From: Chiloscyllium plagiosum
Lineage: Eukaryota
DNA: 64,000 bases
Direction: 5' to 3'
Assembly (NCBI RefSeq): GCF_004010195.1
Contig: NC_057753.1
Span: 8,217,309 to 8,281,308, forward strand
The notes beneath the pieces are model-generated. The model saw only the letters and a program-made list of their open reading frames with translations, was not told the origin of the DNA and did not search any database. Position 1 is the stretch's first letter, and every line of letters starts with the position of its first letter. The position numbers were made by a program, and so were the translations under genes. Shown here piece after piece: positions 7,325 through 63,385 of the stretch.

Positions 7325-7654
7325 GTAGGTTTCTTTATATCATTAATAATTCTGTATACCATGGTTCCTTCATTAATTGCCTATGACTAGAAAACTAAGC
7401 ACATATTTATTTTCACATCGAGTCATGTTCTGCATTCTCTAATGATTAATTACATTGCTCTACCTTACCAATCCCAGATACTGGGGTAATGTGTTCGCAT
7501 GTTGCTCACTCCGTTTGCTTATTTCTGAGCTGAGCAGAGTGACATTGCCTTTTTTGGGTCATTCAAAATTTAAAACACTCTCGTATCTCAATTCAAAACA
7601 CTGACCTATTGCACTTTATATTACTTATTCCCAAATATTCCTCAATGCAAATAG

Positions 7655-15041: not shown

Positions 15042-15562
15042 GGTATTCGCTGGTGAACAACCCCTGGTTTTGTAATGTATCAAGTGGTGTTTTTGGCTCT
15101 CGGGTCTGGATCACTGTCGAGTTCATCCACCACATTGCAACCCCCGGCCTCCCTTTTCTCCTCATTCTGTTGCTTAATATTTTCACAGTCAGACATATTT
15201 TTGTGACCAGTAGAGTTCGCAGAAGACTCCGCCATCATGACAACAGTGTGCGATCCAGAGACCCAGAGATGGACAATCGAAAGAAATCTATCATTTTACT
15301 GTTCGTTATCTCGTCAAATTTCATTGTCTTATGGTCAATGTTAATGATTTATTCCATCTGGAATCGGATGTATAATTTTGGATATGAATCTATATATCTA
15401 CATTGGTTTGTTCAGGAATTAGGCTTCATGCTGCAGCTCATCAGTTGCTGCACAAACACCGCAATTTATGCTGTGACACAGACTAAGTTCAGACATCAGC
15501 TAAAGAACGTGCTGAAATATCCCTTCGCTCAAATTAACAAAATGATCAAATTCACTCATTGA
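15042..15562 (+). CDS. GPR139-like GPCR copy A, visible 3' part of exon 2 (ECL2, TM5-TM7, C-tail)
   Basis: YSLVNNPWFC...PFLLILLLNIFTVRHI...RDPEMDNRKKSIILLF...CCTNTAIYAVTQTKFR; aligns without gaps to 40960-41480 with 7 nt differences; stop TGA at 15560-15562. Confidence 0.88.
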
Positions 15563-17414: not shown

Positions 17415-17546
17415 GAGAAAACCCGAAAGAACTGAGGATGCTGGGAATCAAGGACAAAAAATTATGGGGAATACTTCAACCGGTCTGTTTGTACTTTTGG
17501 GAAAAATCAGAGTTTATGTTTCACTTTAATGACCCTTCTTCAGAAA
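17415..17546 (-). mobile_element. Old Penelope-like end remnant with decayed hammerhead motif (paralog about 43333-43464)
   Basis: Minus strand ttCTGAAGAAGGGTCATTAAAGTGAAACATaaactctgatttttccc...cccagcatcc. Confidence 0.5.
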
Positions 17547-18662
17547 TCATGGCCGCTTGGAAAATATTGCTTTTCATGCAGACAGTCTCCATGTCTCCAC
17601 AAGGGTATTTCAGGGCATTTGCATTTGAATAATAAAACTCATTAAGGACAGTTACTGCTCGAAGCATTAACACACTGATATCATGCTCATGGTCATTATG
17701 CTGTAGTATTGCAAGATAGAGTCTCCACATGCATTACAGCGATTATAATTGAAGCATTAAAATTTGGATGTAATGTTAAGACCAAGCTTACACTTTCGAA
17801 ACTATATAGCAGAAGACCACACTTGTTTTAATGACGATTGCTCTCACTGGTCAGAGTGCAAATTGATAATCAGCGACCAGGCTGCTTATTTGAAACGCGA
17901 TGTTGATTTAAAAGTGTTATTAAAACTTTGCCTACAAAAGCAACGTAACAGTAATGAGAATTAACATCGACCAAGATTGTAAGATTGATAGCCATCTCAT
18001 GATGAAAAGTGAAAGTATGTGATCGGTGGTAAAGTTTACTGAGACACAACAAGTGACTGAAATACACAACAAACATCTCTGGCGTCAGACACTTTGCTAT
18101 CCAGGGCCTATGCATCTTCCTCAAAATGTAGAGAAATAATTGAGAATGATGTTTTAAATTTGAATGAAGTTATGAAAATGGCGGCCAATTGACAGTCCAG
18201 AGCTTTCAGTTCTAAGAATGATCTAAAAATAGGTTGTGGAGGGAGATATGCAATGAATTCCAGAACATGAGGTCGATTCAGGCACATTCATAAGTACATT
18301 ATATACTCCTTTCCATTTGCATGGTTTGATTCTGAAAACCTTCAAACTCTCACCTCAAAGAGCTGTTTTTGTTTTACCATTTTTACCTGACACCGCAGCG
18401 TCAGAGGATTGTGTGGGGTGGTGGGGGGGGGGAAGGTTCAGTTTCCATGACCTTTTTCCAGAATACCTCCTCCTCTAATAGCGTTAAATGACATTGATGT
18501 TTAAAGTATTGAGTAAATAGGTGCATCACTAACCATTCAACCCATCATGCCTGAACCGTCTGTTTGAATGAGTAATTCACTGAGTACCATTCTTATGCTT
18601 TCCCATGTTTCTCCTGAACTCGGTCCCTCAGCACTACGTTATGCTCCACCGCTGCAGCTTTA

Positions 18663-18990
18663 TTAGATTAGATTACATTACAGTGTGGAAACAAGCCCTT
18701 CGGCCCAACAAGTCCACACCGACCCGCCGAAGGGCAACCCATCCAGACCCATTCCCCTACATTTACCCCTTACCTAACACTACGGGCAATTTAGCATGAC
18801 CGATTCACCTAACCTGCACATTTTTGGACTGTGGGAGGAAACCGGAGCACCCGGAGGTAACCCACGCAGACACGGGGAGAATGTGCAAACTCCGCACAGT
18901 CAGTCGCCTGAGGCGGGAATTGAACCCAGGTCTCTGGCGCTGTGAGGCAGCAGTGCTAACCACTGTGCCATTGTGTCACCGCGCCGCCCA
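18663..18990 (-). mobile_element. HE1/V-SINE-type tRNA-derived SINE, full length
   Basis: Minus strand has A box TGGCACAGTGG, B box GGTTCAATTCC, central GTTTGCACATTCTCCCCGTGTCTGCGTGGG, CR1-like 3' end and (CTAAT)n tail. Confidence 0.9.
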
Positions 18991-19189: not shown

Positions 19190-21250
19190 CCTCTTTGCAA
19201 CAAACCTCTCAATGTGGAACCGTGTCAAATGCTTTCTGTAAGTTCAAACATACAATATCCATCGCACTATCCTTATCTACTGTCTGTGGCATTTTGTCAA
19301 AGAACTCAATAAAATTTATTTATTGAGACATGACCTGCTCTTGACAGAGCCATGTTCTCTACCTAGTTTAACTTACTTTTCTGAAAGTGTAAATTGATCT
19401 TTTCCAGTGTTATGTTCTCCGTCAGTGTTCCCGCTGTTGCTGTCAAGCTGACAGGTCTGCAATATTAAGATTTTGCCTTTGTTCCTTTCTTTTAAAAACG
19501 GTGTCACATTTGCAATTACCCAGTACCCCGGGACTAATCCTGTGTTCAGAAAGGTCGGAAAGTTTGGAATTTACTCCCTTACTTCTTTCAGCAATCTGGG
19601 ATGAATCCCGTCCAGGCCTGGCAAATTCTCTCCAAGTAGTTCCGCCAGCGTTTTTATCACCTTTTTATTATTATTATTCTGCATAGTTTCTCAACACCCA
19701 TATTTTGAATTCGAAAATTGTCACCGATTTCTGACTTGTTAAAGACAGAAACAAAACACTGATTTAACACCTCTGTGAAAAAGAACATTTGCTTCAGTGA
19801 GCATTTTACCCTGCTTATTCCTTATGTGCCCCACTCTATCCTTCATTAACTTTTTCTGATAAATATGTTTGAAGAACAACCTGGTTTTGTGTCGCCTGAC
19901 ATACACTCCTCATATGTCCTCTTAGCCTTCCTTATTCCAGCCGTGGCCTGTCTCCTGTATTTGATATTCGCTTCCTGATTTCTATTGCTATTCTTATACT
20001 GGGATGTGTCATATTTCAGGGCGGCAAGATGAGTCAGTGTTTAGCACAGTTGCCTCACAGCACCTGGGACTTGCGTTCGATTCCAAACCCAGACAACTGC
20101 CTGTGTGGGGCTTGCACATTCTCCCCGTGTCTACTGAGTTTACTCTGAGTGCTCCCGTTTTCTCCCACAGTCTAAAGTTGTGCAGGTTAGGTGAAGTGGC
20201 CATGCTAAATTGCCCATAGTGTTCAGGGATACGTAGGTTAGCTGCATTAGTAATGGAAAATGTAGGGCAATTGGGCAGGCGATTGGGTGGATTACTCTTC
20301 AAAGTGTCGGTGTGGACTTATTGGGCCAACTGGCAAGTTATCACACTGTAAGGATTCTATGAACATATGGCTCTTTTCCCTCCCTTATTGTCTGATTATT
20401 GTCTTTCGTCATCCACGCTACTCTACCTTTGAATATCTGTATTTGTTTCTCATGGAAATGGAGGAGCTGTAGCCTATGTATCGCCTGTTTTGAAATTCTC
20501 CCATATTTCATCCATTGCTTTATCCATCAGAGTGCGTTCCCAGTCAAACTGCTCGACTTCAGCCATTCGATTCCAAACGCTGCCCTTTTCTGGTCGAAGA
20601 TCCCAGCTGTTGATTGCATTTTTAAAATCTTTTTTCCAACCGAGTATCGAAACTAAAATTATGACTGATATTTGCCAATGCTCCCCCATTCTGATGTGAT
20701 CTGTGTCAGTGCCTCAGTTCGGAAAACAAGATCCAGCACAATTCACGGACCCCACCACCCACTGCCCTTATGACTTATAATCTACTCTTCCAGAAGGTTT
20801 TCCTGCACACACTGCAGGAATTTCTCCCACTCAGTGTCCAGTGCTACACATTTTTCCCAAAGTGGCTGGAGAAATTCAAATTGCCAACTACCACAACTCT
20901 ACTTGATTTGAAGATTTCCATAATACGTGTACAAATGTTTTCTTTTACTTCCTCCCCATGATTTGGATGTTTCTGATTAATGCTCAAAAGATTACTGCTC
21001 CCTTCCTGTTTCTCAGCTTCAACCAAATAGATTATCATTCAAAACCTGCATCCTGTTCAAAGGAAAATATATTCTTTTTCGCCAAGACTGCAAAAGTTCC
21101 TCCCTTTTTGCCTACACTGTTTCTGCTATAGTTTTACAATGCCGAACATTAAGTGCCATTCCCGTTCTGGCTTGAGCCACGTTTCTGTCAATGCTCCATG
21201 TCCTGCCAGATCCCAGTTTTGTTCAAGATACTCTGCGATTTTCACACATG
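19190..21250 (-). mobile_element. Heavily decayed CR1-like ORF2 (APE to RT start)
   Basis: Minus-strand remnants SSRVVVVGNLNF, QFDWERTL...IWENFK, YRPVSLT-like and KAFDTVPH-like (aaagcatttgacacggttccac). Confidence 0.6.
20019..20362 (+). mobile_element. Older HE1-like SINE
   Basis: ggcggca...ttagcacagttgcctcacagc...gttcgattcc...ttgcacattctccccgtgtct...cactgtaaggattctatga. Confidence 0.8.
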
Positions 21251-26015: not shown

Positions 26016-26149
26016 TGGTTGGTTTCAAACGGTGATCTGCTTTCTCACACCAACCTAAGGGAGTGCAGATGCTGGAGATGTGGAGCACAGCGATGTGTGG
26101 TTCTCATCGATTTTGACTTAAAGGAAAACAGCAACTTTAGGTTTCCAGG

Positions 26150-26574: not shown

Positions 26575-26886
26575 GATTTATTAGCTTACTTACAGTGTAG
26601 AAAGAGGCCCTTCGGCCGAACAAGTCCACACCGACCCTTCGAAGAGCAATCCACCCAGACCCATTCCCCTGCACTTACCCGTTCACTGAACACTACAGGC
26701 AATTTCGCATGGCCAATTCACCTAAACTGCACATTTTTGGACTGTGGGAGGAAACCGGAGCACCAAAAGGAAACCCACGCAGACACGAGGATAACGTACA
26801 AACTGCACACAGACTTTTGCCTGAGTTGGGAATGGAACGCGAATCTCCAGCGCTGTGAGGCAGCAGCGTTACCCACTGTGCCGTCC
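26575..26886 (-). mobile_element. HE1-like SINE (older)
   Basis: Same architecture as 18663-18990 with more substitutions. Confidence 0.85.
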
Positions 26887-29364: not shown

Positions 29365-30358
29365 TTCGCCTCCTTCCAATCCTCCAGTACGACTGGAGTG
29401 AGGAGGCAAAAGTCTTCGCCAGGTGTTTAGCAACCTCATTTCGTGCTTTCCAGAGCAGCTTAGGATAATTCTTGTCTGGCCCTAGGGACGGCACGGTTAG
29501 CACTGCTGCCTCATAGCGCCGGAGACCCGGGTTCAATTCCCGCCTCAGGCGACTGACTGTGTGGAGTTTGCACGTTCTCCCCGTGTTTGCGTGGGTTTCC
29601 TCCGGGTGCTCCGGTTTCCTCCCATAATCCAAAGATGTGCAGGTCAGCTGAATTAGCCTTGCTTAATTGCCCCTAGTGTTAGGTAAGGGGTAAATGTAGG
29701 GGAATGGGAGGGTTGCCCTTCGGCAGGTCTGTGTGGACTTGTTGGGCCGAAGAGCCTGTTTCCACACTGTAATGTGATCTAATCTAAGCTTCCACTTATC
29801 TTTCTTAATGTTGGCCAAAATTACCAGCACACCAACTTCATCAATCTTGATCTGGTCAAGCCTGCATCCCAGCTGTTCAATGTTTTCATTCGCAACAAAG
29901 TCCCTTTCCTTAGTGACCACCGAAACAAAAACAAACTAATTTAGGGCTTCCACTATCTGCTCAGACTCAAAGCTTCAACTCCCTCCGCTATCCCTGATCG
30001 TCCCTTCATTCTCCCTGATCATTCTCTTATTCCTCATGTATGAGTAAAATGCCTTGGAATTCTCCCTAATTCTCTTGCCAAGCCTTTTCTGTGCCCCTCC
30101 TGGCTTTTATCAGTGCATTTCTCAGCTCCATTCTAGTAAGCTTGTAATCCTCTAAAGCTGTGCTCGATACTTGCTTCCTGCAACTTACGCAAGCTGCCTT
30201 CTTCCTTTCGATGAGAAGCTCCTCTTTTCTCGTCATGCAAGGTTCCTTAATCTTGGCCTTTCTTACTTGTTTCAGAGGAAAAAATTCGTGCAACACTCGC
30301 GCAACTGCTCCTTAAATAGTCTCCACAGTTATGCTGTGCACTTTCTATGGAACAATTG
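29365..30358 (-). mobile_element. CR1 fragment (paralog of 5535-6220) interrupted by a SINE
   Basis: Same translations as the unit A fragment. Confidence 0.8.
29490..29787 (+). mobile_element. Young HE1-type SINE specific to unit B
   Basis: B box GGTTCAATTCC and tail atctaatctaa; the empty site agggac|ttatc is seen near 5659. Confidence 0.92.
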
Positions 30359-31612: not shown

Positions 31613-32055
31613 TCCTCTGGCATTGTGCTGAGTTGTCTGCTGTTCCAAGGTGGTCGACACGCCTTTTTTATTCATAGCTTGAAAACTTTCAAACCCTCAT
31701 GTCCCCTGTAATATTTCGTATCCAAGGAAAAATGATTTTGCTCAAGTTCTCGACAATTTCCATCATTGCATTGACTAACGACGCTCATAAATCCCATCCA
31801 AAATCGATGCATTTTCCACAGTGAGAGGAAAAGAAGCGCAATATTGAAATGTAAATGATTTCATCCTGTTTGTTCAGAGACTATAATTAATGGCATACTC
31901 CATGGATGCTTATTGGGAGTCTAGAGGATTACACTCTTCTATTAATAAGGCACTGCTCTCAACCTGTTATTCAACACGGCCAATGGGAGCATCACATACG
32001 AAAACAGATAGATAACGAAGAGAATCTGATATTGACAAGCATTTGTATGACAACG

Positions 32056-32233
32056 ATGGATCTGCATCTGAGGACCCGAGATTTGAACGCTACAACAATG
32101 GAGAAGAGTTATTATTGGTCACTTTTCTATCTTACATATTATAACTGGCTGAAATTCGAACAGCGGGTTCAATATGTACTTGAAGTAATTCAGGCAGGTT
32201 ACTATCCTATCCTCGCTATCGTTGGAGTTCCCG
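32056..32233 (+). CDS. GPR139/GPR142-like GPCR, copy B, coding exon 1
   Basis: MDLHLRTRDLNATTMEKSYYW...YYPILAIVGVP, then G|gtaggt donor at 32234; joins exon 2 in frame to give GVPVNAITIFILL. An alternative in-frame ATG exists at 32047. Confidence 0.87.
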
Positions 32234-32564
32234 GTAGGTTTCTTTATATCATTATTAATTCTGTATAACATGGTTCCTTCATTAATTGCCTATGACTAGA
32301 AATCTAAGCACATATTTATTTTCACATCGAGTCATGTTCTTCATTCTCTAATGATTAATTACATTGCTCTACCTTGCCAATTCCAGATACTGAGTTAATG
32401 TGTTCGCATGTTGCTCACTCCGTTTGCTTATTTCTGAGCTGAGCAGAGTGACATTGCCTTTTTTGGGTCATTCAAAATTTAAAACACTCTCGTATCTAAA
32501 TTCAAAACACTGACCTATTGCACTTTATATTACTTATTCCCAAATATTCCTCAATGCAACTAGA

Positions 32565-36651: not shown

Positions 36652-37070
36652 TACTTAGTGACTTCGTGAAAGAACACTGACAAATTTGTGAGTCATTATC
36701 TCCCACGTCCAAAGCCATGTTGAAAATTCATTTTCAACCCCTATGTTTCCAAATGCATGTATACCTTACCTCTCAGAATCTTCTCACTTAACGTACTGAT
36801 CTATCATTCCCAGGATTTTGCATATAGCCTTTCTTGTATTAAAACACAACATTCGCTACCCTCATGTTTTCTGGTACCTCACCCATAACTGATTATGATA
36901 CAGACATATCAGGCCAGGCCCCTGAACTGTCGTCTCCAGGCTCTTGCTGGGTTCGAAAACATATCTGATTAGGACCAGGAGATCTTTATATCTTCATTTT
37001 TACAAATAAATCCAAGGCCTCCTGTTATGTAGACTGTACCCACGACCCCAAGACTTCATATCATTGTGTC

Positions 37071-37106
37071 ATTCCTGAAGAAGGGCCTGTGCCCGAAACG
37101 TCGAAT
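37071..37106 (+). ncRNA. Minimal type I hammerhead ribozyme motif (predicted)
   Basis: AUUC-CUGAAGA-A-GGGC-CUGU-GCCC-GAAA-C-GUC-GAAU: core boxes, 4-bp helix II, 4-bp helix I, loopless palindromic ACGU helix III. Confidence 0.65.
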
Positions 37107-37201
37107 CTCCTGTTCCCTGGATGCTGCCTGACCTGCTGTGCTGTTCCAACAATAAAGTTTCAACTTTGATCTCCAGCATCTGCAGACCTCACTTTCTCCT
37201 C
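37075..37201 (+). mobile_element. 127-bp Penelope-like mini insert with 9-bp TSD, unit-B-specific, in GPCR intron
   Basis: TSD gtgtcattc at 37066-37074 and 37202-37210; a single copy at the empty site near 12319-12327. Confidence 0.85.
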
Positions 37202-39354
37202 GTGTCATTCTACACCTATTGGAAACATTAATTTAGGAACAGTAAGACATTCAATGGGGTTTGATATTTCTACTTATTGCAAACAAGACAGAACCAGTTA
37301 ACCTTCTCCGATATTAGCTCTAAGTCATAGTGTAGATGTCACGAAACTGCTCGGTTAGAGCGTGGATGGTAAATGTCACAATCATGCAGTGTTATTGTTC
37401 AGATGTTGTTAGAATCTGTGTTCAATGCCTTGAATTGCTTCTAAATGTTATTATCTTTGTACCGTGTAAGGTGAAGGCAATTCATGACATTGGGGAATTT
37501 AGTAAGGTTAATGATGGAGAGTCCACACAACCACTCATGTGGAAATGTACGTACATAAATTTACTTCATTGCTTGTACTGATATGCTGAGTTCATGAATT
37601 CTCAATCGAGTTTTCTTTGAGCAGCTGTCGACTCCAATTATTGACTTAATTGCCTATCAGCATTTGCAACAACACTTGACTCCACTGCATGAATAAAACT
37701 TGGTCATTGTCTGCTACATAAGATAAATATGCAGAGCATTACAAGTAATGTATTAGCGTGGACAGAAGACTGGTTATCTCACAGAAAGCTATGAATAGGG
37801 TCAAACGGTTGATTTTCTGGTTTGCTGGTGTGTCTCAGTGGTGAGCATTCGTAACACAATTGACTACAATTCACATGGGTGATTTCGAGTTGCGACCAAA
37901 TGCGGGTGTGTCCATGTTCGCAGATGACACTAAAATGAGGAGTATATCAAAGTGTGCAGAGTACTCTGAAAGTATGCAGAGGTTTTAGATAGATTAACTC
38001 AGCGTACAAAGGTCTGGCAGTTGAAACACAAACTTAGGAAATGCGACGGAATCCATTCTGGGGTAGAAAATAGCAGCAAAATGGACTATTATTGTTGCAG
38101 TTAACAATTGCAGCATGCTGACATGCAGAGGGACCTGGGTGTCCATGTGTATGAATCACAAAAATTTGGTTTGCTGGTGCTGCACGTAATTACGAAGGCA
38201 AACCGAATATGGTTGTTCAATCCGAAAGGGACGGAGATGAAAAATAAGGTTTTGGGTTCCTTACTTGTGAAGTCATATCTTGGAATTGGAGGAGGTGCGG
38301 AGAATGTACACGAGATTGATTCCAGAATAGATGGGGTCGTCTTATGGTGAGGAATTGATTAAACGTGGAGCTTACAAATTAGAATTGAGATGAATGGGGT
38401 ATCCTGTCGTAAATGATGCACAGTATGCAATGCGTTCTCACCAGGATCTTGTGTAGCATCTCACTCCCCTTATACGATATTCCCCTGACAATATGAATCA
38501 ACATTTGAACATTCTTATGCTCAAGAAGGATTCACTGATTTTTCATCAGAAGTATTCCTAACCTTCTGAGATTTTCCAGCAATCCTTGATTTTTGTTGCA
38601 TATATCCTGCTCTTTATGGGAAAGACGTTTGAATATGAAATATGTTTTTTCTCTTCTTTCAAAACAGTAGTCGAGAAGTGGTAATTATATTCTTCCTGCT
38701 TCTATGTCGCAGTCGTGAGGCAGTGAACAACCCCTGTTGCGTCATGAAACGACCCAGAGGGACTGAATGGACTTATGATCTTCCTGCCAGTCAATGTGGC
38801 ATTTTTTTCAAATTCCTCCTTTGGAAATAAATCGAGCTTCAATCCAGGTTAAGACACAGGCTGATTCTAAAAATGCCTCACACCTGAAATGCATTGTCAG
38901 ACTTGAGATGTCACTTCTTCTATACTGGTAAAACGTATCTCATGACAGTGAGTTGAAAGAAACTCTCTGATTTCCATATTAATCATTCTCCATTCAAAAC
39001 GATTAAAGGTTTTACAGCCATCTCAGGTTTCATCAATATATTCGCATCAGTTGTTTGACTTGGAATTGTAAATTCCACTTTGCAGAGTTAGTTTCTTTTC
39101 TGCTTCTCATCACCTGCGTGATACTCCATCTGTGGTCTCAACAAATTGTAATTTTAGGTATGTTGGCAATGTGGGCAAATAATTGGGTATCAGCTTGTCT
39201 TAGGTTCAGATTTCAGAACAAATGAGTCAGTTTTCTTTTAAACCAAACTAAAAGTAAGTTGTTTTATTACCAAAACAAAAAACAGTAACACGGAACCAAA
39301 GATAAGGGGCAAGGTGGTTAGATTTACGACATGTGCATTAATATTTTTATTTTG

Positions 39355-39860
39355 AGAAACACATGCATGCGTGTGCGTGCGCACACACACACATTCATAT
39401 TCGCACAGACACGCACTCAGACTCACGTATATGCTCACACAGAAGCACCCACACGCAGACGCAATTGATACGTATACATGGATAAACATTCATATGGACA
39501 CGTTCATATGCACGGACACAAATGACAGACACGCATGTACGCATTCACACTGAGATACAAACATATCCCACTCACTCACATACACAGACACTCGCAAAGG
39601 GAAAATAAACACAACGGACAAAGACACACACAAATGGATAAACATTCACATGCATAAACGCATAAAAGTACAGACAAACATTCAGAAAAGGACAGTCGCA
39701 CAAGGCACACACAAGGCATTCTCGTGCATACATGGATTCAGGCATAGATATCCACACAAACAAACTGTCACATTCGCACACACATACTGCCGCTTACTTC
39801 TCGAAACACATAAACATTATGTATACAAAACTACATATTGTAAACACACACACAGACTAC
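39355..39860. repeat. Degenerate (CA)n-rich low-complexity tract in intron
   Basis: Decayed CACA/CAGACA repeats. Confidence 0.85.
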
Positions 39861-40572
39861 CAGGCATAAAACAATCGCACAGAATAGTGAAAAAATATTC
39901 TGTTGAGAATCAAAAGTTTGGAACGTGCAGAGTGTCACATTTAAATAATTTTACCTATGTTTCTGAAAAATCATGGAATAGGTCGAACAAAAACGTAACC
40001 GAAATTATCCTTAACATTCCATGATTGCAATATATTTGAATACCCATAAGTCAGTTAAACAAGCTAAGTGACAAGCTGCACTGTAAAGAGGTCCCGTCCA
40101 GTGAGGAGTAGACATTCCTTCATAATGTGAACACGTGATTAAGAGGTCTTTGCAAAACACCTCGCGTGTGTATGTTTATATCGTTACCTGTCGCGCATTG
40201 ATGACTATTTGGTCCAAATGACATAAATCTCCAACATCTTCAGTGAACTACGCCAGAATAATTCAGGGCAGCAAAAGTCTGGTTTTACTTTCTATATTTG
40301 TAAATGTAAAGCAATGAACCCTGTTGGTTCTCGACTGATCGAGAAATTATGCCTTCTTTTTGATACGTGTCTTTTATTACGAAGGGAGTGATCTTTGGTT
40401 TTCCATTATTTTTATTGAAATAATTAAGTTCTTCACGTTTGTTATTTCAGCTCGAACTGCTTCAATTAATCATTGAATACACGGAAACTTTTAAAAATAT
40501 AGGTCCTTAATCAAACTGATATTGTTGTCCCCAGGCTGATGTATATAATGTATTTGTTTATCTTTCTCACAG

Positions 40573-41480
40573 TTAATGCAATCACGATCTTCATCCTGCT
40601 TAATACAAATTGTGGATTGTCTCCATGTGTTAGTCGTTATCTGGTGGCCATGGCAGTGGCAGATCTACTGGTCATTATCCTCGATCTGATCATGAGACAC
40701 ATTCCGATTGTTTATCAGGAACAGTTTTATTTCTTGATATTCATCCCCATATGTAATATCCACGCCGTCCTGCTTTATGCAGTCACTGACTGTTCTGTCT
40801 GGTTCACCGTCACTTTCACCTTTGATCGATTTGTGGCCATTTGTTGCCAGAAACTGAAGAGTAATTATTGCACTGGGAAAATGGCGGCTGTGATTTTGGG
40901 AACAGTGACTGTGCTGAGCTGCTTAAAGAACGTTTTCTGGTACTTTATGCTCACACCTTGGTATTCGCTGGTGAACAACCCCTGGTTTTGTAATGTATCA
41001 AGTGGTGTTTTTGGCTCTCGGGTCTGGATCACTGTCGAGTTCATCCACCACATTGCAACCCCCGGCCTCCCTTTTCTCCTCATTCTGTTGCTTAATATTT
41101 TCACAGTCAGACATATTTTTGTGACCAGTAGAGTTCGCAGAAGACTCCGCCATCATGACAACAATGTGCGATCCAGAGACCCAGAGATGGACAATCGAAA
41201 GAAATCTATAATTTTACTGTTCGTTATCTCGTCAAATTTCATTGTCTTATGGTCAATGTTAATGATTTATTCCATCTGGAATCGGATGTATAATTTTGGA
41301 TATGAATCTATATATCTACATTGGTTTGTTCAGGAATTAGGCTTCATGCTGCAGCTCCTCAGTTGCTGTACAAACACCGCAATTTATGCTGTGACACAGA
41401 CTAAGTTCAGACATCAGCTAAAGAACGTGCTGAAATATCCCTTCGCTCAAATTAACAAAACGATAAAATTCATTCATTGA
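40573..41480 (+). CDS. GPR139/GPR142-like GPCR, copy B, coding exon 2 (TM1-TM7, C-tail); spliced CDS 1086 nt, 361 aa
   Basis: Acceptor tttatctttctcacag at 40572; YLVAMAVADLL (TM2), C at top of TM3, FDRFVAIC, ECL2 WFC, PFLLILLLN (TM5), CCTNTAIY (TM7 variant of NPxxY); open to TGA. Confidence 0.93.
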
Positions 41481-43654
41481 TCAACTGGTCAGAAGTTTAA
41501 AAATTTCATTTTATAATTTCAGCAGTTCAGGGTCCTCCTTGCTACATTAACAGACCGAGGAAGATGCCTTTTGTGATGAAATTGCAATGTGCTTGATACT
41601 GTTGTTTGGCGATATTTGTGGCGTGATTTGTCGCCAAGGAACAGAAGTCGGATCAATCCTGATGTTGTCTTGTTTTTTTTTATTTTTCCCCAATAGACAG
41701 CTATATGGTTGTTTCCCTTATTTGTGTTGATTCCAATGGTCTGGCTCAATTACCGTCTGCTTCGAAATCAACTCCAATACTAACCATAATCTCACAGAGA
41801 CACTCGTATATAAAAGGAACCGAAGCCTGTCCATCAAACTTCGCCCTCACTCCGATTCGACAGAATATGATCTCAATCCTGCATCTCAGAATTTGAGATT
41901 GCCATTGACCTTTCTATCATCTTTACCTCATGATTATTTATTATCAGTACCACCTTCCATCACACGATTTGTCGACTGTATCTGAAGCTCTAAGGGTCTG
42001 TGAATACAAGCCATGGCGTACAGTAATCTCTGCAAACACTCACATCACATTGGTGCAGACAGTCAATAGCAATACAAACCAGCGTTGTGGCATTTTGAAA
42101 ATGGAAGTGTATCATGTCAACTGGCAATATTTAATTTCCATGAATGTCGCATAAGCAAAAGTAAGTCAAGTAGATTTCACTTTTAACAAAGTCACATTAG
42201 TACCTTTCTTCACATCTATTCTGCCACAAAGTTCTTAAAAGTTGTGATGGTGATTATCCCTTTGACCAATGTTACTTTCATTGGCATATTTTCCTCCTTT
42301 CTGCCCCACTTTCTCCTTGTCATTATGCTAGCACATTTGTTATGTTTAAATCCGCTGAAACTCTTCCGAAGTCGAGGAATCTTGGAGATTATAATCAATG
42401 GACTGACGATCAGAGGTGCCATTTCATTTGAGAGCATAAAGTGTCGGCTTTTGATCCCGGAAACCTGAGGGCCTCCACTTCCACAAGGCGCGGTTTTATT
42501 TTGTTTTTTCCATGATTTTTGGCACTGTTTGAAGTGAATTACCGCTTACACATTCTAATGATCAATTATGTATGTGATGTTAAATACGTTCTTTTTGTTT
42601 GAAAATAAAAAAAATTCAAGCTTTCCAACATTTCATTAATTTTCAGTATCCATGTCCCAGAGCCAATGTGTAAAAGACCAACCCGAGCACAGTTTCTCTT
42701 TTTTTCTTCTCAAATTTGGCAGGTGGACTCTTTCTGTCAGTGGTCATTTTATTAGTTAACTTTGAAGGCAAGTTACAAAACTGAGGTATGCAAGAGACTG
42801 GTCAGTGTTGCGGGTGAACAATTCTGTGGAATCATGAATAATGTCATACAGCAAACCACCAAGTGACAATACTGTAGACGAATCGAAGACTTGAACTCTT
42901 CCTTTCACAGAACATCGAAGAACAATGCTGCAAATGTATCGAAACCTGGATTCCTCCAGAGACAGAACAATTTCAAAGACCAGACTTTTAAAAAATGAAG
43001 ATCACATTTTATCTTTTTTGTTCATTCTGAAATGTTAAAATGTATAAAGTCCCAGAATTCAGAAAATGCTTTCCGTAGAACATTTAAATTCTTATGAGTT
43101 TACGACGCTCTTTAGCGCTCTGACACTCTCTGTTAGAGAAGAATTAGAATTGGCGATATGTGTTGAAAACAATGAGCGGTCCACTGACAGCGTGGTTTAA
43201 GGGTTTATGGATGACCACAGTTTGATTTTGCATAGGGTTTGTGGTTCAATGCCGCTCAGAAATGGATCTTTGATCATTCTTAAAGTAACTATCAAACAAA
43301 CGGACTCGCCATGTACTTACTAGAAATCTAAAGAGAAAACCCGAAAGAACTGAGGATGCTGGGAATCAAGGACAAAACATTATGGGGAATACTTCAACCG
43401 GTCTGTTTGTACTTTTGGGAAAAATCAGAGTTTATGTTTCACTTTAATGACCCTTCTTCAGAAATCATGGCCGCTTGGAAAATATTGCTTTTCATGCAGA
43501 CAGTCTCCATGTCTCCACAAGGACATGTCAGGGCATTTGCATTTGAAGTATAAAACTCATTGAGGACAGTTACTGCTCGAAGCATTAACACACTGATATC
43601 GTGCTCATGCTCATTATGCTATAGTACCGCAAGATAGAGTCTCCACATGCATTA

Positions 43655-43817
43655 CAGCGATTTTAATTGAAGCATTAAAATTTGGATGTAATGTTAAGAC
43701 CAAGCTTACACTTTCGAAACTATATAGCAGAAGACCACACCAGCGATTTTAATTGAAGCATTAAAATTTGGATGTAATGTTAAGACACTTTCGAAACTAT
43801 ATAGCAGAAGACCACAC
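43655..43817. repeat. Local tandem duplication (86 bp plus 77 bp copy with 9-bp internal loss), unit-B-specific
   Basis: cagcgattttaattgaagc...gaagaccacac occurs twice here and once in unit A (about 17737-17822). Confidence 0.88.
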
Positions 43818-43870
43818 TTGTTTTAATGACGATTGCTCTCACTGGTCAGAGTGCAAATTGATAATAAGCG

Positions 43871-43966
43871 CTGAAAATGTGTTGCTGGAAAAGCGCAGCA
43901 GGTCAGGCAGCATCCAAGGAACAGGAGAATCCACATTTCGGGCATAAGCCCTTCTTCAGGAATGAG
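43871..43966 (-). mobile_element. ~96-bp Penelope-like mini insert with hammerhead-type motif, unit-B-specific
   Basis: Minus strand attcCTGAAGAaGGGCttatGCCCGAAAtgtgg...; empty site gataatcagcgaccagg at about 17865-17881. Confidence 0.8.
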
Positions 43967-46965
43967 GCGACCAGGCTGCTTATTTGAAACGCGATGTTGA
44001 TTTAAAAGTGCTATTAAAACTTTGCCTACAAAAGCAACGTAACAGTAATGAGAATTAACATCGACCAAGATTGTAAGATTGATAGCCATCTCATGATGAA
44101 AAGTATGTGATCGGAGGTAAAGTTTACTGAGACACAACAAGTGACTGAAATACACAACAAACATCTCTGGCGTCAGACACTTTGCTATCCAGGGCCTATG
44201 CATCTTCCTCAAAATGTAGGGAAATAATTGAGAATGATGTTTTAAATTTGAATGAAGTTGTGAAAATGGCGGTCAACTGACAGTCCAGAGCTTTCAGTTT
44301 TAAGAATCGTCTAAAAATAGATTCTGGAGGGAGATATGCAATGAATTCCAGAACGTGAGGTCGATCCAGGCACATTCATAAGTACATTATATACTCCTTT
44401 CCATTTGCATGGTTTGATTCTGAAAACCTTCAAACTCTCACCTCAAAGAGCTGTTTCTGTTTTACCATTTTTACCTGACACCGCAGCGTCAGAGGATTGT
44501 GGGGGGGGGGGGGGAAGGTTCAGTTTCCATGACCTTTTTCCAGAATACCTCCTCCTCTAATAGCGTTAAATGACATTGATGTTTAAAGTATTGAGTAAAT
44601 TCGCTGAAATGCCAAATAGGTGCATCACTAACCATTCAACCCATCATGCCTGAACCGTCTTTTTGAATGAGTAACTCACTGAGTACCATTCTTATGCTTT
44701 CCCATGTTTCTCATGAACTCGATCCCTCAGCACTACGTTATGCTCCACCGCTGCAGCTTTATCTCTTACCTGCAATGGTGGCACTCTATCCCCACTGATA
44801 CGTTTTCCTGGTGGTGCTCTGTTTCGCACCTTGTAATCGTCATATGTTATCTGTTCACTAAGTTTTGTGCATGAGTGAATGAATTGTTAATCTGGCTGCT
44901 GAATGAAAATGCAATTATTAAGCACCTCCCCGCTTTCGTGTGCCAGTATGTGTTAGCCCTTCTTGTTTTGTAGAACGATTTTTTTTTCAAACTGCAGGTA
45001 GAAAAAAAGCAAAGTCACATGGCCAGTGAGTAACAATTTCTCCTGACACTGATGTCAACAAGTCCGGTTGTTAAACAGGAGCACTTGTTTGGGAACTCTT
45101 GCACAATGGAAAGTGAAGAGTCAAAAGATAGTAAACGTAGTTGGTAGATCGGTTCAGTATACGCTGAAGACACCAGTAGATTTCAACTCAATTAACTTAA
45201 CCACTCGACTACATAGCCTGTTAATGCTGTTCAAATGGTATTTAAAGAAGATTACAATAGCGCAAATCACCGTTCGATCCATCTTGTTGGATTTGGACTT
45301 TAGCACGTGTAAATATAAAATACTGCCAATAACTGAGGATAATGTCGATCTATTGAACAAATAAAGATATGAAGCAATAGCAGCTACAGTTTTGAAAGAT
45401 GTAGGAAGAACGATGGGTTAACTTCGGGCGCCATACCTCTTTTGTGCATTGGTTGCCACCTTTATCAAAAAATCAAGATGTCCCAGTTTATGAAAGGTTT
45501 GAAATCGCTGTGCTACCTCGCCCTCTTGGAAAACGGGGTTGTCTCTGCTTACTGCTGCAAGTGAATGGAACTAGTCGTTTTTCTTGATGTTCTTGAGGAC
45601 AAAAAGGGGACATGGGATAGCGTTGTCTCAGAAGATTTGGGTGTATCCAAATAGGTTATTTCAGTGTGTTAAAGGAAACAGAAAACTTAAAGAGTGAATA
45701 GGACATCTCAAGGACCAAATTGGAGGTGTCTGCGTGGAAGCTTAGGAGAGAGCAAGTACTCAATGAATGCTTTTCCTCGGTGTTTACCGTAAAGAATGAA
45801 ATGAAGACTTGAAACCATCGGGAATATAGAAGTAATATCTTGCAGAGAGTTGATATAAGAGTAGAGGAGGTGTTGGGTGTATGAGAATGTATGAAGTTGG
45901 ATAAATCTCCAGTTCCTGACCTGAAATATCCAAGAACACTCGGAGAGGCTAGGGATCAAATTACGGGGTCTCAGATGATATTTTTGTGTCATTGCTAGCC
46001 ATAGTCGAGGTCCCACGAGACTGGGCGGTCGTGAATATTGTTCCCTTATTCAAAAATGGCTGCAAAGAAAAGTTCAAAACTGTAGAAAAGGTATTCTAAG
46101 AGAAAGGCGAAAGGGTCATTAGGTTCTTTTGAAAATTGGTCGTCAAGATTGTCAAGACTCGATGGTTATTCTGGGATCGGAGCCAGTGCTTTGCTTCCCT
46201 GCTGTTCAGATTGTCAAAAACAAATTATGTGTTCACAGTAACAATTATGATTCTGCCTTTTCATTGCGGTGTGGCTTAATGAAATTCACATTAACTTAGT
46301 GCAAATATCGTTCATTCTGGGCCAAAGTCTACTAAAACTGAAAAGCAAAAATGATACTACACTTTCGAGTTTGTTTAAAAAGAAATCATCTGTGCTGTTA
46401 TGGCGGCATGCTGGGACAATGGTTAAAAATGACATCTCCCTACCCATAGCATCCAAGTTCCATTCCACCCTTGATTTAATGTCTGTGTGGAGTTTGCACA
46501 TTCTCGTCTTGCCTGTGGGAGTTTCGCTGATGTGCCCTGGTTTCTTCCCACCGTCCAAAGATGTGCAGGTGGATTCGGTGTATATGGTCTTCAGTAAGGC
46601 ATTTGACAAGGTTCCACACAGTATGCTCAATCGTGAAGTCGGGAGGGATGGGATGCAGGGAAATTTGTCTGTCGAGATTCAGAATTGAGAGAGTGGTTGT
46701 ACATGTGAAGTATTCTGCCTGGAGGTCAGTGGTGGGTGGGTTGGCTCGCAGGGCAGTGTTCTTGGGCCTCTGCACTTTGTAGGTTTTATAAATGACTTGG
46801 ATGAGAGGGTTGAGGTGTGGGTTCGGAAATTTGCCGATGACACAAAGGTTGGAGGTAACATTCAAAGTATTAAGGGCTATTGCAGGCTGCAGCACGATAT
46901 AGACAGGATTCAGAATTGGGCTGAGAATTGGCAGATAGAGTTCAACCTGGGTAAATGTGAAGTGA

Positions 46966-47153
46966 GTGCATCTGAGGTGCAGGAAAATCGATATTTCGGG
47001 CAAAAGCCCTTTATCAGGAATATTCCTGATGAAGTGAATTTGCCCGAAACATCGATTTTCGTGCACCTCAGAAGCTGCCTGGCCTGCTGTGCGTTTCCAG
47101 AACCACTCTGATCTAAACTCTGGTTTCCAGCATCTGCAGTCCTCATTTTTGCC
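46966..47153. mobile_element. 188-bp head-to-head inverted Penelope-like insert with 14-bp TSD
   Basis: TSD taaatgtgaagtga at 46952-46965 and 47154-47167; palindrome centre aggaat|attcct at 47021/47022. Confidence 0.85.
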
Positions 47154-47207
47154 TAAATGTGAAGTGATACATTTTGGAAGGTCGAACTTGAATGCTGCTT
47201 CTAGGAT

Positions 47208-47296
47208 CCTGAAGAAGGGCTAATGCCCGAAACGTCGATTCTCCTGTTCCCTAGATGCTGCCTGACCTGCTGCGCTTTTCCAGCAACACATTTCCA
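47208..47296 (+). mobile_element. 89-bp Penelope-like mini insert with hammerhead motif and 8-bp TSD, unit-C-specific
   Basis: TSD tctaggat at 47200-47207 and 47297-47304; empty site at about 60773-60780; GGAUC-CUGAAGA-A-GGGC-UAAU-GCCC-GAAA-C-GUC-GAUUC. Confidence 0.85.
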
Positions 47297-49920
47297 TCTA
47301 GGATTAAAGACAGGATTCCTGGCAGTGTGGAGGAACAGAAGTTTCTTGGTGTTCAAGTGCATAGATCCCTCAAATTTGCCACAAAAGTGGATAAAGTTGT
47401 TAAGAAAGCATATGATGTTTTGGCTTGCATTAACGGGGGGCTGGGGTCGTGTTTCAGAGCCACGAGGTTTTTGCTGCAGCTCGACAAGTCCCTGGTGAGA
47501 CCACACGTGGAATATTGTGTTAAGTTCTGGTCGCCCCATTATTGGAAATATACGGAGGCTTTGACGAGGGTGCAAAGAAGGTTTGCCAAATGCTAACTGG
47601 ACTGGAAGACGTATCTTACGAAGGAAGTTTGACTAAGCTCGGACCTTTCCTCATGGAGAGAAGGAGGAAGCGAGGTGATCGAGGTATTCAAAGTAATGAG
47701 AGACAGGGATGGAGTCGATGGCCAGAGAATTCTCCCCAGGCCAGGATTGAATAGCACGAAGCGTCATAGTTTTAAGGTGTTAGGAGGAAGATTTAGAGAA
47801 TACTTCAGAGGTAGGTTCTTTACACAGAGAGTTGTGAGTACATGGAATGCGCTGCCAATGGCAGTGGTGGAAGCAGAGTCCCTAGGGACACTTAAGCGGT
47901 TGCTGGACATGTACATGGACAGTAGCGAATTGAAGGGTGTGTAGGTAAGGTTATTTTATTTTAAATTCGGAATAATCCTCGGCACAATATCGTGGGCCGA
48001 AGGGCCTGTTTTGTGATGGACTTTTCTATGTTCTGTGTTCTAACCTGTATCAATCTTTAACTTATTCATCCCAAAAAGACCAAATGAATAACGGCAGTCT
48101 TCTTTCATAAGTGATTGGAAAAGCAGTACTTACATAATATTGCACCACGTTAGTTTCAAGTAGTAAAACTTTGTGTTGACTTCGCAGAAAAGAATAATCA
48201 ACTTTGAGTTTCAATGGTTTCATGGAAACAATTTGCAAGGCAACAGGAAAATTCGGAATCTGCATGCTACCAAATACGATGGTATTTGGCACTACCATTA
48301 GGAGTGAATACGGAATGTGAAAACAGTTGTTTTAGTTCTTCAGTTGTTTGACTTTTCCCCCCACACCCACACACACCCCACCCCAACCCCCACCGTTTCC
48401 AGAAATTGTGGGTTGTCAGTTTAATTACTGATCACAAAGATACAAGGTATTGTTGTAAATTGGTGCTGTGAAAGTACTCATTTGGAATAGAAACATATTC
48501 AGTGAATTGCAGGAGTCATATTACTTACTCAACTTGTGTGAGATGAACGCGTCGTTGCTCCAACTAGCCATGAAAGCAGAACACCTTCAATTTTAAAAAC
48601 AAAAACAAATTCCTCAAAGAAATCACAAATTTCATAAAACGAAACGAAAGGAAGCATTTAAGTTTGAAAGAATAAGTTATGGCTGATGCCTGTTCCAATT
48701 GAAGTATTTCTCCTAAGTGACAAAAAAGGCTATGCATATTCCTGGAACTGAGGGAGGTACAAACGATTGGATATAATCACACAGTTTCCAGGGAAAATAA
48801 ACGTTTACCTGGCATGAGGAAGTGTGCATGCTACACGAAGAAAGAGGAAAATGCGCACTTTAGGATTATGTTCAGACATGGAGTCCATAACAAAGTAAAA
48901 CAGCTGAAGAGTCTTCAAACAGTTGGAAACAAAACAGAGAAACAAATCAAAAGTCCAAACACTACACGTGTAATTCATAAGGATAACTTTCAGTGTACAC
49001 AGGTCCTATTCACTATTTGTAAATTCGCGAGAATTGGTCTATTTTATCAAATAATTCGACTGTGTGCACAATGCTGCATTAGCATATCGCCAGTCAAAAT
49101 GCTACAAGTTGATGCAAACATCGTTTTGAAATTTCAGGGGCTTGTTGTCCTCAGAATTGTTAAATATATTACGTTCAAATACATTTAAGTTCGGTAATAT
49201 TTTGACTGGACAGATTGACTTTGGGTCCAGACATTTACCCTCAGAGCTATGAAGAATATGTCATCATGATTACTATCAGTGTTGGCAGATCCGGTGCTCA
49301 GAATGAAATCCAATTTGCACAGGCTAAACTGGTTACATCTCTGGAGCAATTCTGAGCATAACACTGCACCCAAGCCCTTTACACCATCAGAACAGGTGAC
49401 CAAGACTTTAACTATATACGCACATATTGTCCAAAGATCACAAGTTGAATATACATCTGATGAAGTTTAAGATTGGCTATTGACTAAGTGGTGACAGGTT
49501 ATGCATGGTCTTAAAATATTCTACAGCTTTTTCTTCAGTTTCAATCATCTTACAGAAACGTTTTTCATTTGTCCCCTCGTCGGGATTATGCAATTCAGTT
49601 TCATTATTTTTTTAAAAATCAGAAGATCAGATATCTCCAGGATAATAACTATGAATTATGGAAATGCACCTTAATGAGTCATTGCCATGTCTATTTAATA
49701 TTTGGTAACTTTTGTTTTAGCCCATGAGCTTTGCTTCATGCGCAGCATGGAAACAATAGTGTTTTTTCTCTTTTTTCCATCTTTTACTTTTTGCTGAAAT
49801 CTAGCTTGCTTCACCAAGTATATTGATCTGCTGAAAACACCGAGCAGGATATTAAAGGCATGTTTACAAAAATGACACGGGAGCATTGATGCAAGGAAAA
49901 TTGTTCTCTTGATCTACTTT

Positions 49921-57681: not shown

Positions 57682-57720
57682 TCTGCCTTCCCATTTGACT
57701 AATTTTCAAAGCTTTTTTTT

Positions 57721-58014
57721 AGATTAGATTACTTACAGTGTGGAAACAGGCCCTTTCGGCCCAACAAGTCAACACCGACCCGCCGAAGCGCAACCCACCC
57801 ATACCCCTACATTTACCCCTTACCTAACACCACCAATTCTCCTGACCTGCACATCTTTGGACTGTGGGAGGAAACCAGAGCACCCGGAGGAACCCACGCA
57901 GGCACAGGGAGAACGTGCAAACTCCACACAGTCAGTCGCCTGAGGCGGAAATTGAACCCAGGTCTCTGGCGCTGTGAGGCAGCAGTGCTAACCACTGTGC
58001 CACCGTGCCGCCCA
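57721..58014 (-). mobile_element. HE1-type SINE with small internal deletion
   Basis: Minus strand tgggcggcacggTGGCACAGTGGttagc...GGTTCAATTTCC...aatctaatct followed by an A-run. Confidence 0.9.
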
Positions 58015-60538: not shown

Positions 60539-60726
60539 GAGCATCTGAGGTGCAGAAAAACAGATCTTTCGGGCAAAAACCCTTTATCAGGAATATTCCT
60601 GATGAAGTGAATTTGCCCGAAACATCGATTTTCGTGCTCCTCTGATGCTGCCTGACCTGCTGTGCTTTTCCAGAACCACTCTGATCTAAACTCTGGTTTC
60701 CAGCATCTGCCGTCCTCATTTTTGCC
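60539..60726. mobile_element. 188-bp inverted Penelope-like insert (paralog of 46966-47153)
   Basis: TSD taaatgtgaagtga at 60525-60538 and 60727-60740; centre gaat|attc at 60594/60595. Confidence 0.85.
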
Positions 60727-63385
60727 TAAATGTGAAGTGATACATTTTGGAAGGTCGAACTTGAATGCTGAATCTAGGATTAAAGACAGGATTCCTGACA
60801 GTGTGGAGGAACAGAAGTATCTTGGTGTTCAAGTGCACAGGTCCCTCAAAGTTGCCACCAAAGTGGATAAGGTTGTTAAGAAAGCATATGATGTTTTGGC
60901 TTGCATTAACGGGGGGCTGGGGTCATGTTTCAGAGCCACGAGGTTTTTGCTGCAGCTCTACAAGTCTCTGGTGCGACCACATTTGGAATATTGTGTTAAG
61001 TTCTGGTCGCCCCATTATTGGAAATATACGGAGGCTTTGACGAGGGTACAAAGAAGCTTTGCCAGGATGCTGCCTGGGCTGGAAGATGTGTCTTACGAAG
61101 GAAGTTTGACTAAGCTCGGACCTGTCCTCCTGGAGAGAAGGCGAAAGTGAGGTGATCGAGGTATTCAAAGTAATGAGAGACATGGATGGAGTCGATGGCC
61201 AGAGAATTCTACCCAGGGCAGGATTGAATAGCACGAGGCGTCATAGTTTTAAGGTGTTAGGAGGAAGATTTAGAGAATACTTCAGAGGTAGGTTCTTTAC
61301 ACAGAGAGTTGTGAGTACATGGAATGCGCTGCCAGTGGCGGTGGTGGAAGCAGAGTCCCTCGGGACACTTAAGCGGTTGCTGGACATGTACATGGACAGT
61401 AGCGAATTGAGGGGTGCGTAGGTAAGATAATTTTATTTTAAATTCCAAATAATCCTCGGCACAATATCGTGGGCCGAAGGGCCTGTTTTGCGATGGACTT
61501 TTCTATGTTCTGTGTTCTAACCTGTATCAATCTTCAACTTATTCATTCCAAAAAGACCAAATGAATAACGACAGTCTTCTTTCATAAGTGGTTGGGAAAG
61601 CAGTACTTACATAATATTGCACCACGTTAGTTTCAAATAGTTTTGGCAAAACATTGTGTTGACTTCGCAGAAAAGAATAATCAACTTTGAGTTTCAATGG
61701 TTTCATGGAAACACCTTTTGCAAGGCAACAGGAAAATTCGGAATCTGCATGGTATTTGGCACTACTATTAAGAATGAATACGGAATGTGAAACCAATTGT
61801 TTTAGTTCTTCAGTTGTTTGGCTTCCCCCCCCCCCCCCCCCCCCCACCCCCACCGTTTCCAGAAATTATGGGTTGTCAGTTTAATTACTGATCACAAAGA
61901 TACAAGGTATTGTTGTAAATTGGTGCTGTGAAAGTACTCATTTGGAATAGAAACATATTCAGTGAATTGCAGGAGTCATATTACTTACTCAGCTTGTGTG
62001 AGATGAACGCGTCGTTGCTCCAACTAGCCATGAAAGCAGAACACCTTCAATTTTAAAAACAAAAACAAATTCCTCAAAGAAATCACAAATTTCATAAAAC
62101 GAAATGAAAGGAAGCATTTTATAAAAGTTTGAAAGAATAAATTATGGCTCATGCCTGTTCCAATTGAAGTATTTCTCCTAAGTGACAAAAAAAAGTTATG
62201 TATATTCCTGGACTGAGGGAGGTACAAACGATTGGATATAATCACACAGTTTCTAGGGAAAATAAACGTTTACCTGGCATGAGGAAGTGTGCATGATACA
62301 TGAAGAAAGAGGAAAATGCGCACTTTAGGATTATGTTCAGACATGGAGTCCATAACAAAGTAAAACAGCTGAAGAGTCTTCAAACAGTTGGAAAAAAAAC
62401 AGAGAAACAAATCAAAAGTCCAAACACTACACGTGTAATTCATAAGGATAACATTCAGTGTACACAGGTCCTATTCAATATCTGTAAATTCGCGAGAATT
62501 GGTCTATTTTATCAAATAATTCGACTGTGTGCACAATGCTGCATTAGCATATCGCCAGTCAAAATGCTACAAGTTGATGCAAACATCGTTTTGAAATTTC
62601 AGGGGCTTGTTGTCCTCAGAATTGTTACATATATTACGTTCAAATACATTTAAGTTCGGTAATGGTTTGACTGGACAGTTTGACTTTGGGTCCAGACATT
62701 TACCCTCAGAGCTATGAAGAATATGTCATCATGATTACTATCAGTGTTGGCAGATCCGGTGCTCAGAATGAAATCCAATTTGCACAGGCTAAACTGGTTA
62801 CATCTCTGGAGCAATTCTGAGCATAACACTGCACCCAAGCCTTTGACACCATCAGAACAGATGACCAAGACCTTAACTATATACGCACATATTGTTCAAA
62901 GATCACAAGTTGAATATACATCTGATGAAGTATAAGATTGGCTATTGACGAAGTGGTGACAGGTTATGCATGGTCATAAAATATTCTACAGCTTTTTCTT
63001 CAGTTTCAATCATTTTGCAGAAACGTTTTTCATTTGTCCCCTCGTCGGGATTATGCAATTCAGTTTCATTATTTTTTGAAAAATCAGAAGATCAGATATC
63101 TCCAGGATAAAAACTATGAATTATGGAAATGCACCTTAATGAGTCATTGCCATGTCTATTTAATATATTGTAACTTTTGTTTTAGCCCATGAGCTTTCCT
63201 TCATGTGCAGCATGGAAACAATAATTTTTTTTCTCCTTTTTCCATCTTTTACATTTTGCTCAAATCTAGCTTGCTTCACCAAGTATATTGATCTGCTGAA
63301 AATACCTAGCAGGATATTAAAGGTATGTTTACAAAAATGACACGTGAGCATTGATGCAAGGAAAATTGTTCTCTTAATCTACTTT

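Follow-up and report, generated by a model that had tools for sequence, protein, structure and literature searches.

Short inserts bearing a minimal hammerhead motif as likely truncated ends of Penelope-like elements

In the 64-kb window (the whole stretch of DNA that was analysed) we examined short inserts that are present in only one of two paralogous sequences. We consider it likely that they are extremely 5'-truncated 3' ends of Penelope-like elements (PLEs), that is, the pseudo-LTR with its minimal hammerhead, with or without a tail, corresponding to the last 90 or 127 bases and made by an enzyme and from a template that we infer. The RT/GIY-YIG protein of full-length elements located elsewhere probably wrote them into the genome. 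Presence and absence between paralogs, target duplications, two classes of 3' end, inverted structures, longer copies and the motif were observed directly. The initial annotation holds as regards PLE origin, a type I hammerhead and insertion after the duplications, but not as regards a separate mobile unit.

By paralog comparison, the insert at 37075-37201 (+) has no counterpart in the paralog at ~12319, that at 43871-43966 (-) none at ~17870 and that at 47208-47296 (+) none at ~60771, the flanks diverging by 3.8/2.9%, 1.4/2.5% and 4.6/5.2%, respectively. The target sites are single-copy in the empty paralogs. The claims that each insert occurs in one paralog only, and that insertion followed the recent duplications, were therefore confirmed. 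The 37075-37201 insert belongs to a long class and consists of the minimal hammerhead, a spacer and the tail; the other two belong to a short class and lack the tail, the one at 43871-43966 having lost its cut triplet and the one at 47208-47296 retaining an intact core at 47209-47236. All three directly adjoin their target duplications, which are 3 bp long at 43871-43966 and 8 bp long at 47208-47296 (TCTAGGAT, 47200-47207 and 47297-47304). At 37075-37201 the repeated sequence is GTGTCATTC (37066-37074 and 37202-37210); its last 6 bases are the same as the element's own upstream letters, so that the true duplication is 3-9 bp long, with up to 6 bases of microhomology. Both of the clean 9- and 8-bp duplications proposed earlier are present, but the longer one may really be as short as 3 bp. 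The three inserts are 84-91% identical to one another and therefore came from different sources. The family seems young enough to vary between near-identical copies of a locus, and the practical value of this locus is that the junctions of three insertions can be read exactly against their empty paralogs.

Related copies are also found. At 46966-47153, within a CR1 LINE fragment, lies an older head-to-head insert with a 54-base inverted arm (46967-47020, -), a long-class copy (47023-47153, +) and a 14-bp duplication; its paralog at 60539-60726 (arm 60540-60593, copy 60596-60725) is 94% identical. The long-class copy at 4027-4180 (-) starts inside the core and carries a 30-base inverted tail on its 5' side (4151-4180); no clean empty site for it was seen in a three-sequence alignment. 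A decayed copy at 17415-17546 (-), with a 99% identical paralog at 43339-43463 (-), belongs to an older related family and is 47-62% identical to the others. These copies, all but the last paralog already listed in the initial annotation, were relocated by nhmmer at 4028-4151, 47023-47153, 60596-60725, 17421-17545 and 43339-43463; they were part of the search model, so the search locates them and is no independent test. Weak matches at 38546-38583 (E 0.038), 26060-26079 (E 0.88) and 61059-61081 (E 4.8) were excluded from the six events considered below. Within the window the copies are single or head-to-head and none is in tandem, and the target duplications vary (3, 8, 3-9 and 14 bp).

When positions were counted from the C of CUGA, the 5' starts of all six window events fell between ~-8 and +5, a span of ~13 bases. 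The 3' ends form two classes, two inserts ending at ~+87 and four events reaching ~+126. Autonomous PLEs have two RT start sites with a 30-40-base tail between them (PMC11167929; PMC8557442), and the ~38-base gap between the two classes matches this tail. In public sequencing runs the unit matches tens of thousands of contigs (35,997 and 41,041). Among the 24 rows listed of 662, the loose 3' ends pile up at 37199-37201 (207+651+242 X1 contigs and 980+319 X7 contigs), and the flanks beyond are random (agreement 0.33-0.34). The PLE-type tail (37167-37201, +; 33-35 bases) is repeated in tandem at some contig joints (37199/37201 back to 37167) and inverted onto the 5' end at others (37070-72 to 37170-77), and there are head-to-head inversions at 37070-71. 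The tail inversion and the head-to-head inversion are the structures of the window copies at 4027-4180 and 46966-47153, and such inverted structures have been reported for PLEs (PMC3846280). Some contigs contain head-to-tail joins (37200/37201 to 37071; 37148 to 37066); a monomer RNA circularised by ligation at the hammerhead cut site would show no joint.

A descriptor of the minimal hammerhead gave two matches in 64 kb (37075 and 47209), compared with 0.03 on average, and never more than 1, in 60 shuffles, which agrees with the proposed minimal type I hammerhead with a palindromic helix III. A looser CUGANGA..GAAA pattern (18 matches, 7.8 expected) was dropped as too unspecific, and an Rfam search gave no match at E<=1. 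The intact core at 37075-37102 (+) has helix II at 37083-86/37091-94 and helix I at 37071-74/37103-06; the predicted cuts after C37102 and C47236 had been counted correctly. Only two of the ten hammerhead-bearing segments are intact, since U-GUG follows GAAA in the 43959 copy, where the cut triplet is lost, helix II is broken in the 47026 and 60599 copies, which read AUC, and CUGA is incomplete at its start in the 4150 copy. The claim that helix II is kept while its loop varies was upheld. In the 47209 copy a 6-bp helix I is made largely of host target bases. Folding gave only -1.7 kcal/mol for the ACGU duplex of helix III and a probability of ~0.1 for helix I in full context. Hammerhead cleavage was rejected as the source of either insert end because neither lies at the cut site (+28). 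On the favoured reading the hammerhead, predicted to stay uncleaved as a monomer, sets neither end.

No PLE coding remnant was found in the window either by tblastn with 150 PLE proteins or with a profile of 27, queries that come from one seed in another animal and may be too distant for this window. At one locus of another animal (L001), a frame with matches to RT+GIY-YIG proteins (tblastn 55-66%, E 1e-173; Pfam concordant) is followed, ~570 bases downstream on the same strand, by the same core; only the core is common to this locus and the window family. Pfam on three broken peptides of the locus and a word search with its endonuclease piece gave nothing; an Atlas lead pointed to GIY-YIG clusters (score 0.94, family on 20-51% of members), and the peptides were then identified by phmmer and Pfam. 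A PLE frame is present at only one of six loci with the core (L001-L006), which weighs against the PLE reading, as does the lack of a coding remnant in the window. Helix II conservation at these loci carries no weight here, since it was imposed by the search pattern, and alignment A6 omits L006, a 96% copy of L003. Three Algoriphagus loci (L007-L009) from a prokaryote pattern scan have ordinary bacterial genes around them and were set aside as chance; viral contigs gave no match to the hammerhead pattern.

Longer copies occur in both DNA and RNA runs. An upstream extension before 37069 was common to all four runs (140, 162, 214 and 21 records; agreement 0.41, 0.43, 0.72 and 0.45); its motif has no match in the window, where no copy reaches that far. 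In ~2% of one RNA run, 2,911 reads carried the unit. Each strand was represented (396:565 at the core), with no pile-up of starts or ends over the unit in this one fragmented library, which fits passive transcription. For a 901-base stretch, no run was listed with RNA matches.

If the inserts are truncated PLE ends, an endonuclease would nick AT-rich DNA and reverse transcription would begin at either of two internal RNA sites ~38 bases apart. The cDNA synthesis would pass back through an uncut hammerhead, inherited from the parent element, and halt at the front edge of helix I. Joining of the cDNA to the target would then use 1-6 bases of microhomology, sometimes after an inverted copy of the cDNA or of the tail had been added. 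Published PLE insertions are matched by the two 3' classes, by the inverted copies and by the junctions with microhomology, in favour of the PLE terminal origin suggested by the initial annotation. The 3' junction at 43871, which resembles a continuation of the template in 6/7 bases, runs counter to the initiation without homology reported for PLEs (PMC11167929). Random truncation fails to explain why all six events start near CUGA; for the stop at helix I, an RNA start and RT drop-off at a protein-bound fold seem about equally probable. Should the clustering mark where the RNA begins, or where synthesis halts at the ribozyme fold, it would add a missing part to what little is known of the PLE cycle: how the 5' junction and the inverted repeats arise, and whether the hammerhead has a role in insertion. 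We tentatively suggest, as a possibility well short of likely, that run-off ('strong-stop') synthesis made the stubs: transcription of the PLE would start a few bases before the core, RT would start internally, 90 or 127 bases from that 5' end, and the short cDNA would be integrated. If true, this would be a fixed-size ribozyme mini-element mass-produced by the PLE cycle; the start of the PLE RNA could then be located with nothing but genome sequence, and the head-to-head palindromes would be either a pair of run-off cDNAs or a single one folded back.

It seems unlikely that the mini-copies form a self-propagating non-autonomous family, transcribed by read-through or from a promoter of their own and then copied again, in trans, by the PLE protein as SINEs are. 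The tight 5' cluster, the sharp 3' end, the very high abundance and the unit-bearing RNA reads would suit such a family; moreover, pLTRs are enough in trans (PMC3846280), as is a short region close to the hammerhead in vitro (PMC11167929). On the other hand, copies with the common upstream extension exist, so that the ends, spread over ~13 bases, are not the fixed 5' end without longer parents of the SINE type, and no tRNA-type box is evident by eye. Re-copied read-through RNA would bring old flanks, whereas the young inserts directly adjoin their duplications; their different sources and the passive look of the RNA also count against it. The proposal that the inserts move as independent units is thus not upheld, given the longer copies, ends away from the cut site and 3' ends that match PLE start sites (PMC11167929), and the tight 5' boundary leaves it a small chance. 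Monomer insertion by a non-LTR retrozyme, in which transcripts of tandem arrays are cleaved by dimeric hammerheads, made circular and then copied by reverse transcription, is very improbable. Such retrozymes have their origin in pLTRs and are present in one cartilaginous fish (bioRxiv 10.64898/2026.07.22.740005), and the palindromic ACGU helix III and the few head-to-tail contig joins would fit, but the window holds no tandem hammerhead-bearing units, neither insert end is at the cut site, the predicted helices are weak and RNA ends do not pile up at 37102/37103 (a weak test in a fragmented poly-A library). Least credible of all is a non-PLE repeat with an incidental hammerhead likeness, or deletion from the other paralog. 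The lack of an Rfam match and of a PLE frame in the window would agree with it; against it stand the excess of descriptor matches over shuffles, the single-copy empty sites, family variation at N7, loop II and CpG sites (contigs, among the rows listed) and, from pair counts, helix I closing pairs that differ on both sides between two lineages.

The class itself is not new: solo minimal hammerheads that derive from truncated PLEs have been described in many animals. According to Cervera and De la Pena (2014, PMC4209133), most minimal hammerheads are single and probably come from truncated PLEs. The window family shares with those of metazoan PLE pseudo-LTRs the type I core, a single unpaired base ahead of helix II, the G-C closing pair, palindromic 15.2-16.2 without a helix III loop and mostly single, dispersed motifs; helix II is 4 bp here and 7-8 bp in the Schistosoma examples, and neither cartilaginous fish nor 5' junction clustering is among the features described in the sections of that paper considered here. 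Non-LTR retrozymes are likewise non-coding, pLTR-related and of type I, but are defined by tandem hammerhead-bearing units, unlike the single or head-to-head copies of the window. With EN-bearing PLE insertion units (Frangieh et al., 2024, PMC11167929; Craig et al., 2021, PMC8557442; Arkhipova et al., 2013, PMC3846280), the copies differ in being 89-127 bases long, without coding sequence and starting at the front of helix I. The searches of the window gave no RT+GIY-YIG frame of such elements; at L001, in another animal, one lies upstream of the shared core. Of the features of such elements, we saw the type I hammerhead, an optional tail, an adjacent inverted copy, longer copies and variable duplications; the likeness extends to a pair of 3' ends beyond the hammerhead that differ by the tail, a tail at either end, head-to-head inversions, microhomology at the 5' junctions and a putatively uncut RNA template.

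The initial annotation had described three inserts, at 37075-37201 (+), 43871-43966 (-) and 47208-47296 (+), as present in one paralog only, and this was confirmed, as the target sequence occurs once at each empty paralogous position. The flanks of the paralogs differ by 1.4-5.2%, and the inserts are therefore younger than the duplications. The claimed target duplications of 9 bp at the 37075 insert and 8 bp at the 47208 insert were also found, and at the third insert the duplication measures 3 bp. Positions 37069-37074, directly preceding CUGA, align as family sequence, thus up to 6 of the 9 duplicated bases are microhomology. In the public sequencing run X1, a contig with 0 differences spans the left flank and continues 19 bases into the 37075 insert. 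In run X7, only two contigs (8 and 1 differences) lie on the left flank; the alignment of each breaks off at 37074, with five unaligned letters beyond this point (low coverage). These low-coverage contigs suggest that X7 has a copy of the locus without the insert, 99% identical to the filled one, either as an allele or as a third paralog; the junction at 37069-37079, filled in X1 and seemingly empty in X7, is a possible presence/absence polymorphism.

The window is repeat-rich animal DNA with CR1-type LINE fragments (Pfam domains RVT_1, endonuclease and GDSL-esterase in three of five window peptides) and tandem segmental duplications of 94-99% identity. A rhodopsin-family GPCR frame lies at 40503-41480 (Pfam 7tm_1) and is duplicated, within these duplications, at about 14054-15562; two short 5' coding segments, 6982-7386 and 31891-32268, resemble first exons. 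The 43k paralog alone carries a 77-base local duplication (43708-43784), some 85 bases away from the 43871 insert, and paralog identity also steps down near it. The hammerhead-bearing copy at 4027-4180 has tails at both ends; it lies near the start of a duplicated block, between two CR1 fragments matching different places, and is without a clean target duplication. Weak similarities were seen at 38520-38590 (possibly a very decayed copy) and at 26060-26079 (16 bases resembling the tail, close to the front of a CR1 element). A repeat family of ~300 bases (18659-18970, 20019-20352, 26580-26886, 29495-29787 and 57715-58002), presumably a tRNA-derived SINE, matches in part the metagenome locus L002 (262-355) at 77-82%.

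When the query 36955-37314 was aligned at 80% likeness to 4 of 24 listed sequencing runs, 35,997 and 41,041 contigs matched from two DNA runs, together with 2,911 raw RNA reads, drawn from about 2% of their run; a second organism contributed 1,804 contigs. Nearly all of them cover 37063-37206, at a summed depth about 100,000x that of the flanks, a depth that is not a copy number. Loose 3' ends pile at 37199-37201, and the flanks are random. At 37069, loose ends share their last letters in all four runs (24 of 662 rows listed), so a share of the copies continues upstream into common element sequence. About 26 bases ahead of CUGA, this shared extension has a pyrimidine run closed by AG, reminiscent of a splice acceptor; introns are known from PLE (Penelope-like element) pseudo-LTRs. 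Over 7-8 bases, the spacer stretch 37119-37126 is the reverse complement of 37176-37183 in the tail; this spacer stretch is also where the inverted arms beginning at 46967 and 60540 end.

A minimal-hammerhead descriptor found only 37075 and 47209 in the window, versus a mean of 0.03 matches in 60 shuffles. Ten segments bear a hammerhead (two inverted arms and eight copies); the core proposed for the copies is intact at 37075 and 47209 and not in the other eight. An Rfam search gave no match, which probably reflects the missing helix III. Predicted folding of 40-base fragments gives the hammerhead as the minimum-energy structure (-7.7 and -12.4 kcal/mol). Within the full inserts, helix II is predicted with a probability of 0.94-1.0, against about 0.1 or less for helix I; the predicted energy of the ACGU duplex is -1.7 kcal/mol. 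Among 40 of 70 variant rows listed, N7 varied in 29% of RNA reads, loop II positions in 77%, 16% and 70%, CpG sites of the ribozyme in 8-13% and position 37105 in 85%; the remaining core bases showed no change. The 37105 change leaves most copies with a helix I in which a U-U mismatch separates two pairs from a single further pair, and only a minority have the clean 4-bp helix I seen at 37075. At 47209, host bases contribute to the 6-bp helix I. Covariation was examined in 12 sequences (seven from the window and five of six metagenome loci). In helix I, both partners are replaced at the two pairs adjoining the core (C-G to U-A in five, U-A to G-C in four; score 0.277, reached in 0 of 500 shuffles). 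This signal is essentially one contrast between two lineages, and no compensatory change was seen in helix II; covariation was therefore only weakly borne out.

The 5' starts of six independent events cluster at the hammerhead. Counted from the C of CUGA, 37075 starts at -1 to -6, 43960 at -7/-8 and 47208 at -1/-2; both arms of 47022 start at about -4, 4150 at about +5 and 17543, with less certainty, at the core. Ribozyme cleavage was ruled out as the source of this end, as the starts fall at -8 to +5 and the predicted cut at +28. According to PMC11167929, reverse transcription initiates internally on the RNA, at two sites that delimit a 30-40-base tail lying downstream of the hammerhead. RNA that is still uncut serves as the principal substrate there, the ribozyme cleaves only when protein is present, and none of the RNA reads terminate at the cut site. 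In a retrozyme study (bioRxiv 10.64898/2026.07.22.740005), one of nine tested dimers cleaved. Most likely, an autonomous PLE protein performs target-primed reverse transcription, which would begin internally at one of two sites and then terminate early. The template may itself begin at the clustered position, or the reverse transcriptase may drop off at the edge of a folded, protein-bound domain. The front edge of helix I can be an RNA-processing point: in Drosophila virilis, the intron end maps there (PMC4209133), and the 75-base intron plus a further 46 bases separate this end from the upstream start site (PMC2377424). If the layout is shared, this argues against a start at helix I. The RNA-start idea was checked on the six events and one RNA run, and RNA ends did not pile up in that run. 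The 5' clustering is the only part of the finding worth following; we found no paper on it or on shark PLE hammerheads in literature that included few subscription papers.

A pattern scan of metagenome contigs gave six loci of animal-like DNA with the same hammerhead core. One of them, L001, carries a broken same-strand frame (81-1729), about 570 bases upstream of the hammerhead, that matches proteins with RT and GIY-YIG domains (RVT_1 in nine and GIY-YIG in four of ten matches). The stretch 81-2327, animal DNA on a metagenome contig, is a broken RT and GIY-YIG PLE whose relatives carry a CxxC-type linker. PLE protein and profile searches found no RT/GIY-YIG remnant in the window, and the PLE link of the window family thus rests on architecture: its two 3' ends lie about 38 bases apart, the tail can be repeated or inverted, some copies stand head to head and junctions show microhomology, features that have all been described for PLEs. 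The inserts are real, young, abundant and of a kind already described, best explained as 5'-truncated PLE 3' ends; the independent non-autonomous mobility proposed for them was not borne out. The literature consulted also included PMC8557442, PMC3846280, PMC6765202, PMC6155905 and Lunse et al. 2017 (as cited in PMC6765202).
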